From a virus: DNA of 10,751 bases. The notes under the pieces are model-generated. The model was not told where the DNA came from. It ran no database searches and saw only the letters and a list, made by a program, of their open reading frames with translations. The stretch's first letter is position 1. Each line of letters starts with the position of its first letter. Both the position numbers and the translations under genes were made by a program. Positions 2,487 through 4,835 of this stretch are shown piece by piece. The stretch is taken from UHGV virus genome UHGV-1843114; one strand, 5' to 3'.

Positions 2487-3287
2487 TTACTTGATAAATC
2501 CTGACGCCTTTCCCCGCCTGTATTCCTCCATCAGCCACTGCGCCGGTGTTATTCCCCCAAGGGTGGCGGCGTTAGGCATGCACCCGAAACTTCGCCCTGG
2601 TGGATGGTAAACATCTCTCCCTGTGTCCGGAGGCGTACTCATGGGTTCTGGCTTTGCCTGTATGCTGATCACCGGATCGGGTATCTGCTGTCCGGAAGCC
2701 ACCTTTTTCGCCCAATCATCGAGCAGCCTGCGCGCGTGTTTCTCAACCTCAATCTCGCTAAGCTGGCGCTGATACATTGCACGGCGGGTATCACATACGA
2801 CCCAGTACATAACCGGATGTCGCCACGGGAATCTTTCGGGACCACCAGGATATAAACTTTTTTCCTTGCTGTACCGGTGAAACTCCGCCATCACATCGTC
2901 AATGGTGACGCCAAGAACCATCTTGCTGTCTTTACACCACTTGATGAATTGCCCTGGCGACGGCCAGAACGGAGACTCACTGGCGCGGGCGTGGCGCATA
3001 CCAGCAGAAACCTGTTCACGGGTTCGGATCCCCCCTTCGGCAAACGCAGCAATCCACTGCTGTTTTGCAGCAACTTCCTGCTCTGGCGTCTTCAGGTTGG
3101 TTACCACTGCCGCCGGAAACAGTTGTTTCAGCTGTTTGAAAAGGGCATCAACAAGCCTCTCTGCTGACATGTTCACCACGTTGTCATTGTTGGTGTACTG
3201 ATGCTCATAACCTGACATGCGAGAAAGGGCTTCTCCGTCACGGTTTTGTATCGCGGTAAAAACGTTGTTCACAAGAAATCCTCCCAT
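2487..3287 (-). CDS. Replication protein P-like (DnaB helicase loader)
   Basis: 266-aa ORF. By-eye alignment to lambda P from memory: ...QLFPAAV... / ...ATFPASL..., ...EGGIRTREQVSAGMRHAR... / ...ENGITTMEQVNAGMRVAR..., ...PFWPSPGQFIKWCKD... / ...PFLPSPGQFVAWCRE.... Start is uncertain: the ATG at 3285-3287 overlaps the O-like gene's 3' end; alternative ATGs at 3216-3218 and 3168-3170. Confidence 0.8.
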   Translation of the reverse strand: MGGFLVNNVFTAIQNRDGEALSRMSGYEHQYTNNDNVVNMSAERLVDALFKQLKQLFPAAVVTNLKTPEQEVAAKQQWIAAFAEGGIRTREQVSAGMRHARASESPFWPSPGQFIKWCKDSKMVLGVTIDDVMAEFHRYSKEKSLYPGGPERFPWRHPVMYWVVCDTRRAMYQRQLSEIEVEKHARRLLDDWAKKVASGQQIPDPVISIQAKPEPMSTPPDTGRDVYHPPGRSFGCMPNAATLGGITPAQWLMEEYRRGKASGFIK

Positions 3288-4084
3288 GCTTCAGGGCTGT
3301 TCCAGTGCGGAACGTTGTTATCAGGTAATGTTGATTGCTTCTGTCTGCTAATCTGCAGCCGCCTTGCCAGCTTCTGCTCCCACTGTGCCTGATGGTATGC
3401 CTTACCCTCAGCCATCCAGTAAATTCTGAACTCTGCAAGTTCCTGTGCCGTTGGCAGACTGTCCAGGTAGATCCCCTGCAATGAGCTTTTCCGAAGAAAG
3501 TCATCTGATGGCTGCCATTGTTCATGCATGACAAATTTGCCTAATTGCCCTGGCCCACCAGGAGGAACAAAGTTATTCATCACGGCGTTGTTTGCGCCGG
3601 GGTCATGATGCACAGAATCCCCGTTTTTTGTCCTGCTCTCCCTCTCTTGGTTAAATGACTGGTTATATGACTGGTTCTGGATCCCGTTTTTGGGATCATT
3701 CAACATCCCGTTTTTGGGATCATTCAACATCCCGTTTTTGGGTATATTCCCGTTTTCGGTAACATTACCGTTTTCGGGTTCATTGCCCCCCTCTCGGTTG
3801 CCTTTAATGTTCCCGTTTTTGGTTATATTAAGAGAGAAAACCCGCACTCTTTTTGTCGCTCCCTTTCTCTCCCCGGTATCTGAAATAAGCCCCATTTTCA
3901 TGAGCGATATAAGTCCGGCCTGCACGGTTTTTTTATTCAGGCAAGTGTCTTTAACGAGGCGTTCTATGCTGGGGTAGCAGAGGTTATATTCATCGGCTCT
4001 GTCAGCCATCGAGAGCAGTATGAGCTTTAATGACGAGCTACCTGGATCTGTCTCCCAGGCCCAATCTGTTGCATGTCTGCTCAT
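3269..4084 (-). CDS. Replication initiator (O-like position): N-terminal HTH domain, iteron-encoded Asn/Gly-rich linker, DnaT-like C-terminal region
   Basis: 271-aa ORF, SD GGAG 9 nt upstream of the ATG at 4082-4084. N-terminus MSRHATDWAWETDPGSSSLKLILLSMADRADEYNLCYPSIERLVKDTCLNKKTVQAGLISLMKMGLI matches the HTH pattern of phage replication initiators (memory). Sits immediately upstream of the P-like gene and contains the iteron array. Confidence 0.8.
   Translation of the reverse strand: MSRHATDWAWETDPGSSSLKLILLSMADRADEYNLCYPSIERLVKDTCLNKKTVQAGLISLMKMGLISDTGERKGATKRVRVFSLNITKNGNIKGNREGGNEPENGNVTENGNIPKNGMLNDPKNGMLNDPKNGIQNQSYNQSFNQERESRTKNGDSVHHDPGANNAVMNNFVPPGGPGQLGKFVMHEQWQPSDDFLRKSSLQGIYLDSLPTAQELAEFRIYWMAEGKAYHQAQWEQKLARRLQISRQKQSTLPDNNVPHWNSPEAWEDFL
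3618..3830. repeat. Putative origin of replication: iteron array inside the initiator gene
   Basis: Seven copies of the core tCCCGTTTT(T)GG, starting near 3618, 3681, 3705, 3729, 3748, 3765 and 3810; three are exact 24-bp tandem units ATCCCGTTTTTGGGATCATTCAAC. Also a 10-bp tandem ATGACTGGTT at 3655-3664 and 3667-3676. Same layout as lambda ori inside gene O. Confidence 0.65.
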
Positions 4085-4099
4085 GATTAATCTCCGCTA

Positions 4100-4300
4100 T
4101 CAGCTTGAATGTTGTGGGGAGGAATTAATCATGATCTGCTTAATCTCTGCCCTGATACGACGGTTTGATTCCATGGTGCACTCAACACAGTGTCCGTTGT
4201 AAACCCAGCGTTCACTGTCATGTCCGTGCTTACATGTTTTTCCGGTGTAGTAGCGTTTAAGTCCGCGCTTTGCGGCATCAATACGTGTAATGATTTCCAT
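4100..4300 (-). CDS. Small putative zinc-binding protein (66 aa) at the cII position
   Basis: ATG at 4298-4300 with AGGG about 6 nt upstream. MEIITRIDAAKRGLKRYYTGKTCKHGHDSERWVYNGHCVECTMESNRRIRAEIKQIMINSSPQHSS contains C-x-H-x-H...H-C-x-x-C. The ORF track extends it to a TTG at 4363, which I consider less likely. Confidence 0.55.
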   Translation of the reverse strand: MEIITRIDAAKRGLKRYYTGKTCKHGHDSERWVYNGHCVECTMESNRRIRAEIKQIMINSSPQHSS

Positions 4301-4379
4301 GGTAAGCCCTGTTATTAGTATTGGGATTACGGTCATTTTGTGCTGACACAAAAAAAAGATCAACCAGATTTGGTTTTTT

Positions 4380-4409: not shown

Positions 4410-4429
4410 AGACCGCCGGATGGCGGTCT
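4410..4429 (-). terminator. Intrinsic terminator downstream of the cro-like gene (tR1-like position)
   Basis: Perfect 8-bp stem AGACCGCC / GGCGGTCT with a 4-nt loop. On the minus strand it is followed by TTTTCATATC. No T-run follows it on the plus strand. Confidence 0.6.
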
Positions 4430-4681: not shown

Positions 4682-4716
4682 AGCTATTGCCTGATATTTA
4701 TTTCAGATAATAAATA

Positions 4717-4781
4717 TTCACCCATAAGGTAACAAAAATCAAGGATAGTTACCTATGAGGTGCATTTACCTGTTGGGTAAT
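4717..4781. promoter_or_regulatory. OR-like tripartite operator and divergent promoter region between the cro-like and repressor genes
   Basis: Three copies of the 17-bp motif: 4717-4733 tTCACC-cataa-GGTAAc, 4748-4764 gTTACC-tatga-GGTGCa, 4765-4781 tTTACC-tgttg-GGTAAT. A candidate minus-strand -35 TTGATT lies at 4736-4741 (read on the minus strand) with the first site in its spacer. Confidence 0.65.
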
Positions 4782-4835
4782 ATTGCTTTAAATTGAATCA
4801 TCTACTGATTCATATATGAGGCGATTTTCCAGAAA

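Follow-up and report, generated by a model that had tools for sequence, protein, structure and literature searches.

The virus genome UHGV-1843114 is represented here by a stretch of 10,751 nucleotides (the window), in which a cluster of short repeats occupies part of a replication initiator gene encoded on the minus strand (positions 3269-4084). These repeats most likely are the iterons of the theta origin of a phiV10-like (Uetakevirus) prophage, located inside the linker-coding part of the prophage's own initiator gene, as the phage lambda origin (ori) is located within gene O. An earlier note on this DNA had proposed such a lambda-type arrangement, and the proposal is supported computationally, by the operon context and by conservation of the motif in relatives.

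The repeat array in the initiator gene

A search of both strands of the window for CCCGTTTTTGG, allowing up to two mismatches, returned nine sites. Seven of these are on the plus strand within positions 3620-3822 (3620, 3683, 3707, 3731, 3749, 3767, and 3812), and the remaining two are on the minus strand (8462 and 10354), each with two mismatches. Given that only 3.5 sites are expected by chance on both strands of the whole window, the seven co-oriented copies within 203 bp form a clear cluster. The copies are spaced by 45, 18, 18, 24, 24, and 63 nt and share a single reading frame, in which they encode [PT][KE]NG. Tandem Repeats Finder detected just three arrays in the entire window, all in the initiator gene. 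Read on the gene strand, the unit is a 16-bp imperfect palindrome, ATCCC-AAAAAC-GGGAT, with complementary 5-bp arms. The elements of the putative origin are as follows:

3810-3825, minus strand: upstream outlying iteron, TAACCAAAAACGGGAA, encoding TKNG, 45 bp from the core array
3681-3780, minus strand: core array, a contiguous block of five iterons, each a 16-bp imperfect palindrome
3765-3780, 3747-3762, 3729-3744, 3705-3720, and 3681-3696, minus strand: the individual core iterons
3646-3680, minus strand: second conserved element, CAGAACCAGTCA-TA-TAACCAGTCA-TT-TAACCAAG, directly downstream of the last iteron
3618-3645, minus strand: purine-rich tract, AGAGAGGGAGAGCAGGACAAAAAACGGGGA on the gene strand, including the weak seventh copy
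3681-3742: 24-bp unit repeated 2.6 times, 100% (Tandem Repeats Finder)
3730-3784: 18-bp unit repeated 3.1 times, 78% (Tandem Repeats Finder)
3648-3676: 12-bp unit repeated 2.4 times, 94% (Tandem Repeats Finder)

On the gene strand, the core iterons read AACCCGAAAACGGTAA, TTACCGAAAACGGGAA, TACCCAAAAACGGGAT, and then ATCCCAAAAACGGGAT twice, with centers 18, 18, 24, and 24 bp apart. We limited the core to 3681-3780 because the distal seventh copy, and sometimes also the first, is mutated in relatives. The upstream copy, kept in most close relatives and represented by a TKKG mutant in some, is located in the 40 bp with the lowest duplex stability in the gene (3801-3840, z = +2.3 in a stability scan). 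The distal copy (3618-3633, CCCCGTTTTTTG) is the weakest, matching the motif in about 20 of 77 close relatives and mutated in most.

The earlier note had described seven repeat copies inside the initiator open reading frame (ORF) and had quoted the peptides NGNIPKNGMLNDPKNGMLNDPKNG and NQSYNQSFNQ. Seven copies of CCCGTTTT(T/C)GG are indeed present on one strand, at up to two mismatches, the minus-strand ORF (271 amino acids) contains them, and both peptides agree with its translation. The three exact 24-bp units also mentioned there turned out to be two complete units plus a third that breaks off after 14 nt. The 10-bp sequence ATGACTGGTT does occur twice, but the copies do not abut; they recur with a period of 12 bp, separated by a 2-nt spacer. 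The phage has an iteron of its own, as claimed, but this iteron differs little from that of lambda: the two units are ATCCC-N6-GGGAT and ATCCC-N8/9-GGGAT, respectively, with the same AAAAC core.

The copy number among related prophages, a comparison suggested in the same note, ranges from 4 to 9 and never falls below 4 in 77 near-identical contigs and in Escherichia coli prophages, the initiator genes of which measure 792-870 bp; the flanks are conserved. The arrangement in the window, a five-copy core plus the upstream copy (spacings 45, 18, 18, 24, and 24), is the commonest among the 77 close relatives. In the E. coli prophages, the 18-bp unit is present in one to five copies and the 24-bp unit in two to four, again between conserved flanks. 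The 120 best-matching proteins include only near-identical E. coli variants of 279-311 amino acids. Close relatives differ mainly by length, from 263 to 311 amino acids, the longest (P0001 from E. coli, 311 amino acids) having 40 residues more than the window protein; considering these lengths, arrays of more than nine copies probably exist.

Conservation of the motif as a DNA site

For comparative analysis, we compiled three sets of homologs: (i) 80 diverse homologs of the N-terminal domain from one-genome-per-species contigs, with 41-87% identity to the window protein, from Enterobacterales, Vibrio, Pseudoalteromonas, Acinetobacter, Marinomonas, Desulfovibrio, and Sphingomonadales; (ii) four annotated phages (GF-2, Vibrio H20, AP22, and PPompW); and (iii) 80 near-identical viral contigs. 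A reduced set included 48 representatives with N-terminal domains less than 90% identical. In the linker-coding segments of these 48 representatives, the motif C-N-R-AAA-W-Y-GG was found at 6.97 per kb, nearly always on the coding strand, compared to 0.11-0.12 per kb outside the linker, both within the ORFs and across 110 kb of flanking DNA, a roughly 60-fold contrast. The copies are distributed among the three reading frames (79, 20, and 6), encoding PKNG, [ST]QKR[DN], and PKT[EG], respectively, and the frames are mixed in 17 of the 28 motif-bearing genes. For example, the copies in locus L015 are spaced by 17, 17, 23, and 24 nt, and phage GF-2 has an off-frame copy, ACC CAA AAA CGG GAT. The exact motif is missing in the other 20 representatives, mostly from an Acinetobacter subgroup, in which GTxCC-AACAAC-GGxAC 16-mers are present in frames 0, 1, and 2. 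Whereas the earlier note had named retention of the linker peptide with loss of the nucleotide repeat as evidence against iterons, the opposite was observed: the motif is kept where the encoded peptide differs.

Codon usage shows the same constraint. When copies were defined by peptide alone ([PTS][KE]NG) and compared with the rest of the same genes, proline was encoded by CCC in 49/49 cases in the repeats vs 14% elsewhere (p = 1e-35), threonine by ACC in 14/14 vs 29%, lysine by AAA in 47/47 vs 67%, glutamate by GAA in 21/21 vs 62%, and asparagine by AAC in 65/68 vs 55%. In the window itself, all four prolines inside the repeats are encoded by CCC, compared to 7 of 68 elsewhere. The outer positions of the arms vary by lineage (ATC/GAT, GTA/TAC, CCC/GGG, and CAC/GTG), and the three outer arm positions are complementary in 159 of 315 cells, against a null expectation of 110 +/- 7.8 (maximum 139 in 5,000 shuffles). 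With a single consensus per locus, complementarity was found in 46 of 84 cells vs 30.1 +/- 3.4 expected, a value reached by none of the 5,000 shuffles. The spacing between units ranges from 17 to 45 nt across the family. Mixed frames, fixed synonymous sites, and covarying arms together indicate that the motif is conserved as a DNA site; at the level of sequence comparison, it is thus shown to be under DNA-level rather than protein-level selection. As far as sequence can tell, the frame, codon, and arm patterns are those of a site that a symmetric dimer binds in duplex DNA; for lambda, the argument is the same.

Some features of the data weigh against this interpretation. All copies in the window are in one frame, so that the choice between DNA and protein conservation rests on the relatives. 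Copies within a gene are not independent, and the p-values are inflated because such copies arise by recent duplication. Furthermore, the regular expressions were partly designed after inspection of the data, although the copies in the codon test were defined by peptide.

If the repeats were a feature of the protein only, namely, a disordered Asn/Gly/Pro-rich linker changing by replication slippage, this would explain why the copies in the window and its close relatives are all in frame and differ in number by whole units of six or eight codons, and why the xKNG peptide motif recurs in distant homologs. This explanation is at odds with the finding that the same nucleotides encode PKNG, xQKRx, or PKTx, often within one gene, with the essential invariance of the fourfold and twofold degenerate sites of the repeat in 48 diverged genes, with the covariation of the palindromic arms, and with the strand specificity of the motif and its absence from the remainder of the genes. 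In lambda, in-frame deletions of iterons are reported to be cis-acting ori defects (PMC6022878). We therefore regard a protein-only origin of these patterns as effectively excluded; the repeated Asn/Gly-rich peptide is best regarded as incidental to DNA sites that happen to share one frame in this lineage.

Palindromes could also be conserved as nucleic acid structures, that is, mRNA hairpins or terminator-like hairpins in the antisense direction, or as binding sites of a different factor or host protein. Each unit is indeed able to form a 5-bp stem. Furthermore, a consensus scan flagged two intrinsic-terminator-like hairpins on the plus (antisense) strand, at 3691-3710 and 3715-3734, in which GGGAT from one 24-bp unit is paired with ATCCC from the next and TTTTT follows. 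These hairpins probably arise incidentally from the iteron sequence. The loop would be formed by the central AAAAAC, the most conserved part of the unit, and the arms are imperfect, whereas a selected hairpin would show the reverse. The inter-unit hairpins are not conserved, given the variable spacing in the family, and an Rfam scan of the window yielded no match to any family. Finally, the motif is invariably associated with the same DNA-binding domain, irrespective of the host. A structural role or a role as a site for another protein thus appears very improbable, and we return to the iterons as sites of the phage initiator.

The second element and a proposed mechanism

In the window, the second conserved element reads CAGAACCAGTCATATAACCAGTCATTTAACCAAG, encodes NQSYNQSFNQ, and consists of tandem 12-mers of the form RGAAYCNNNCA. 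This motif was found at 4.08 per kb in the linker regions vs 0.18 per kb elsewhere, and one to three copies follow the last iteron in 49 of the 53 family members. The doublets usually are 12 or 13 nt apart, so that the frame shifts between copies. Here again, codons are fixed: glutamine is encoded by CAG in 23/23 cases vs 41% and arginine by CGG in 13/13 vs 13%; serine is encoded by TCA and proline by CCA in 18/18 cases each. We consider this element a candidate unwinding or loading element that, by position, could be the analog of the AT-rich region of the lambda origin. The purine-rich tract that comes next takes the place of the A-rich tract found in many relatives as well as in lambda and P22.

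By analogy with lambda, the following sequence of events can be proposed. Dimers of the HTH_36 N-terminal domain, the presumed iteron binder, would bind each of the 16-bp imperfect palindromes, and five or six filled sites would build an O-some-like nucleoprotein complex. This complex would destabilize the adjacent downstream DNA, comprising the GAACCAGTCA 12-mer repeats and the purine-rich tract, which would be the site of unwinding when the origin fires. The DnaT-like C-terminal domain, which perhaps also contacts single strands, would then recruit a lambda-P-type loader carrying the host DnaB. In such a scheme, the iterons would set the replicon specificity.

The properties of the adjoining DNA fit this scheme less well. 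The duplex-stability scan of the window revealed no strongly AT-rich element adjoining the iterons at which the DNA could unwind; the 12-mer region is only modestly unstable (z = +1.4, 57-62% AT), and intergenic DNA at 2414-2453 and 4693-4817 is much less stable. In the literature searched, moreover, no report of binding or origin activity was found for the HTH_36 initiator family. The search, which did not extend to much of the older phage literature, also yielded no account of the iteron sequence itself or of any iterons in the initiators of the HTH_36 family, phiV10, or epsilon15; this negative result is therefore weak.

The stretch 2414-2453 is the least stable 40-mer of the window (82% AT). 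It is located just downstream of the P-like gene and contains a TTACCTCTAAGGTAA hairpin; at the homologous place, a rho-independent terminator is annotated in phiV10. Between two minus-strand ORFs, a stretch of 78% AT (1973-2012) begins with a perfect DnaA box (TTATCCACA, 1973-1981). There is no DnaA box in or near the array, the nearest one being that at 1973; DnaA-box-like sequences in the window are at the chance level, so this box may mean nothing.

These AT-rich stretches bear on another possibility, namely, that the initiator sites are real but serve mainly in control (autoregulation or a roadblock of the early-right transcript, handcuffing that limits the copy number, or the exclusion of related phages), with the origin located elsewhere, for example, in AT-rich intergenic DNA. 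Iterons of plasmids have dual roles, in initiation and in control. Lambda iterons placed on a plasmid inhibit replication in trans (PMC3349717), the array lacks a strong AT-rich neighbor, and AT-rich DNA is available at 2414-2453 and at 1973-2012, the latter with its DnaA box. Nevertheless, each element has its counterpart in the lambda and P22 origins, and the order within the gene is shared as well, with the array just 3' of the DNA-binding domain followed by the conserved second element and then, in most relatives, by an A-rich tract. Besides, this is the only region with a repeat array in the window, and the AT-rich intergenic stretches correspond to annotated terminators or operators in phiV10. 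A predominantly regulatory array therefore seems improbable to us, although less so than a structural one, and an origin within the initiator gene is preferred.

A more specific and more tentative possibility is that HTH_36 phage initiators share an undescribed bipartite in-gene origin, in which CC-N6-GG iterons, with arms that set specificity, are combined with universally conserved RGAAYCNNNCA 12/13-mers, of which the P22 origin also has one, as the actual melting or loading site. The initiator, for example, through its DnaT-like C-terminal domain, or a host factor would possibly recognize the 12/13-mers in single-stranded form. Although we consider this extension doubtful, if it is true, the second element would be a new conserved origin motif comparable to the 13-mers of oriC or the DnaA-trios, and the gene pair in the window would be of the iteron-bearing type ancestral to bacterial DopC/DopE.

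The replication module and its relation to known origins

The genes and domains of the replication module are the following:

3269-4084, minus strand: replication initiator gene, 816 bp, 271 amino acids (ORF and translation, with Pfam, PHROG, and PDB matches)
Initiator residues 1-86: HTH_36 winged-helix N-terminal domain, predicted to bind the origin
Initiator residues 87-155: Asn/Gly-rich linker encoded by the putative origin DNA
Initiator residues 180-265: DnaT-type C-terminal domain
2487-3287, minus strand: lambda-P-family helicase loader gene (Pfam Phage_lambda_P, E = 1.5e-56; PHROG 109)

The initiator belongs to PHROG 1032, "replication initiation protein" (E = 1.4e-108), and Pfam searches identified HTH_36 (E = 1.8e-10, residues 18-67) and DnaT (E = 1.1e-15, residues 184-252). 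The DnaT chains 9zbt, 6aep, and 4ou6 in the PDB match residues 180-265 with E values of about 1e-20. The iteron stretch 3681-3825 corresponds to residues 87-135, between these two domains. A single-sequence AlphaFold model of the initiator had a mean predicted local distance difference test score (pLDDT) of 37.5 and was not used. The ORF shares 99.9% identity with Orf40 of Escherichia phage phiv142-3 and 97.7% with gp43 of phiV10, both phages being of the genus Uetakevirus, and equivalent genes are present in 424 of 5,426 complete E. coli genomes (about 8%). No origin or repeat is annotated in the initiator gene in the records of phiV10 and phiv142-3, and public records call the phage initiator "primosomal protein I" or "DnaT," a name that covers only its C-terminal third.

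The loader gene (PHROG 109, "P-like helicase loader," E = 3.7e-92) is directly downstream and overlaps the stop codon of the initiator gene; its product presumably is the partner that delivers DnaB of the host to the complex at the origin. A single PHROG profile, phrog_15931 (482 positions), is matched by the C-terminus of the initiator (at profile positions 200-268) as well as by the P-like protein (at 354-452), indicating that phage fusions of DnaT-like and P-like domains exist, which hints at a physical partnership of the two proteins. Upstream of the initiator gene are a small ORF, a cro-like gene, and a divergent repressor, so the surrounding layout is that of a lambdoid repressor/cro early-right operon. 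A strong terminator-like hairpin on the minus strand (4410-4429; eight pairs, six of them GC, followed by a T-run) is located between the cro-like gene and the small ORF (4100-4363; phrog_1081, in the cII position), in agreement with the terminator annotated in phiV10.

Across the family, the N-terminal domain and the array stay together whatever the C-terminal domain or the partner gene. HTH_36 was detected in all 53 members, whereas the C-terminal part matches DnaT in six, Phg_2220_C in two, DnaA_N in one, and no Pfam family in the rest. A P-like gene is present downstream in just 9 of the 48 representatives, and AP22 has a DnaB-type helicase. This modularity fits the classical two-domain organization of lambda O, with an origin-specific N-terminal and a partner-specific C-terminal part. 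Gene O of Edwardsiella phage GF-2 (positions 1501-2343 of locus L002) is a chimera in which an HTH_36 N-terminal domain, 59% identical to that of the window protein, is followed by three ATCCCAAAATTGGGAT iterons and one out-of-frame ACCCAAAAACGGGAT and then by a lambda-O-type C-terminus; the recombination joint is immediately after the putative origin. The initiator family is large: at 50% identity, it forms at least 3,592 clusters, which come from across Proteobacteria, and at least three PKNG-like or QKR motifs are present in 109 of the 130 best full-length representatives.

The closest parallel is lambda, where the iterons are annotated at 39034-39118 inside O and read ATCCCTCAAAACGAGGGA and similar. 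The O protein binds these iterons, each an imperfect inverted repeat (PMC7466680; PMC3349717). In the lambda model, O dimers on the iterons form the O-some, DNA melts beside the last iteron, and P-DnaB is brought in via the C-terminal domain of O (PMC7466680; PMC3349717; PMC5509034). As in lambda, the putative origin of the window is located in the initiator gene, in the linker segment just after the (predicted) origin-binding N-terminal domain, and contains at least four imperfect-palindrome iterons of the type ATCCC...AAAAC...GGGAT. A second region is located downstream, before the C-terminal partner-binding domain; a P-family helicase loader is next, and the unit is part of a pR-type early operon. 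The differences concern the proteins as well as the sites. The window initiator has an HTH_36 rather than a Phage_rep_O N-terminal domain and a DnaT-like rather than a lambda-O-type C-terminal domain; its iterons are 16 bp long with a 6-bp center, compared to 18-19 bp with an 8-9-bp center in lambda; and they share one frame, whereas the lambda iterons are in mixed frames. In place of the 38-bp highly AT-rich tract of lambda, there are the GAACCAGTCA 12-mers and the purine-rich tract. The initiator is outside the lambda O family, with no match to PF04492 (Phage_rep_O), which does match lambda O and P22 gp18. In an hhalign comparison (E = 6.7e-5, probability 64%, 44 columns), its winged helix-turn-helix aligned with the corresponding end of the N-terminal domain of lambda O and P22 gp18, a weak link obtained with shallow profiles that tempers the comparison. 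Judging by this analogy, the locus would work like lambda ori/O with an initiator from outside the O protein family.

P22 also has its origin annotated within the initiator gene, gene 18 (rep_origin; positions 1841-1985 of locus L174). Membership of gp18 in the same protein family, considered because both proteins are 271 amino acids long, was ruled out by the Pfam assignment of gp18 to Phage_rep_O. In P22, the repeats are directly followed by GAATCAGTCA, which matches the second element of the window family, and then by an A-rich tract. Unlike in the window, the P22 iterons are of the TCGGTAAAAC type, and the partner is a DnaB-type helicase (gene 12), with no P-type loader. In the P22 origin, GAATCAGTCA is followed by repeats of ACAAAAGACAATA and by a palindrome, CCCCCTAAAGGGGG. 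Several HTH_36 relatives (L057, L081, and L087) have, downstream of the array, a palindrome that resembles the latter and encodes PP(K/Q)GG.

The DopC/DopE pair of Cellvibrionales and Oceanospirillales shares with the window the combination of HTH_36 and a DnaT C-terminal motif, followed by a lambda-P-family protein. These genes are resident in the chromosome and, as proposed by Brezellec et al. (2017, PMC5509034), derive from a lambdoid phage by domestication. According to the same authors, dopC contains no iteron-like sequences, and replication does not start there (PMC5509034). Unlike dopC as reported, the window contains a phage-borne module with its iterons intact.

The origins of theta plasmids (pSC101 RepA, R6K pi, RK2 TrfA, and P1 RepA) resemble the window in having arrays of direct repeats as initiator sites beside 13-mer-type repeats, at which the plasmid DNA melts, and a winged-helix initiator. 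Plasmid iterons are usually intergenic, 17-22 bp long, and non-palindromic and are bound by Rep monomers with two winged-helix domains. These origins usually also contain DnaA boxes, unlike the surroundings of the window array. The window initiator has no Rep_3 match and only one HTH_36 domain, and its sites are palindromic and intragenic, which sets it apart from the plasmid Rep_3 class. Plasmid Rep proteins can specifically bind a single strand of the DNA unwinding element (PMC4081077).

The C-terminal single-stranded DNA-binding domain of E. coli DnaT is homologous to residues 180-265 of the window initiator (E = 7e-21 to 9zbt; also 6aep, 4ou6, and 2ru8). The homology does not extend over the full length or to the N-terminal oligomerization/PriB-binding domain of DnaT, residues 180-265 matching DnaT 85-170 and the N-terminal 86 residues being HTH_36. 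DnaT itself, a protein of replication restart, lacks both a sequence-specific HTH domain and an origin; its partners at stalled forks are PriA, PriB, and DnaC.

An origin within the initiator gene was to be expected; for this initiator family, it is unannotated, and, as far as we found, no description of it exists. Our understanding of how such origins work is unchanged. What is added is DNA-level evidence across the family and a conserved second element. The analysis places the probable origin of phiV10/epsilon15-type prophages, which are present in about 8% of complete E. coli genomes. By extension, it does so for many phages of Acinetobacter, Vibrio, Edwardsiella, and other hosts, in the records of which no origin is given and the gene is called "primosomal protein" or "DnaT." For this large initiator family, it also offers a simple means of predicting origins and groups of incompatibility or specificity, namely, by looking immediately behind the HTH_36 domain for CC-N6-GG palindromes with RGAAYC repeats next to them on the downstream side. 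The locus is a clean natural case of overlapping constraint, in which DNA-binding sites dictate a peptide repeat. Finally, the pairing of an HTH_36-DnaT_C protein with a P-like protein as a phage module bears on the origin of DopC/DopE and perhaps of dnaT-dnaC.

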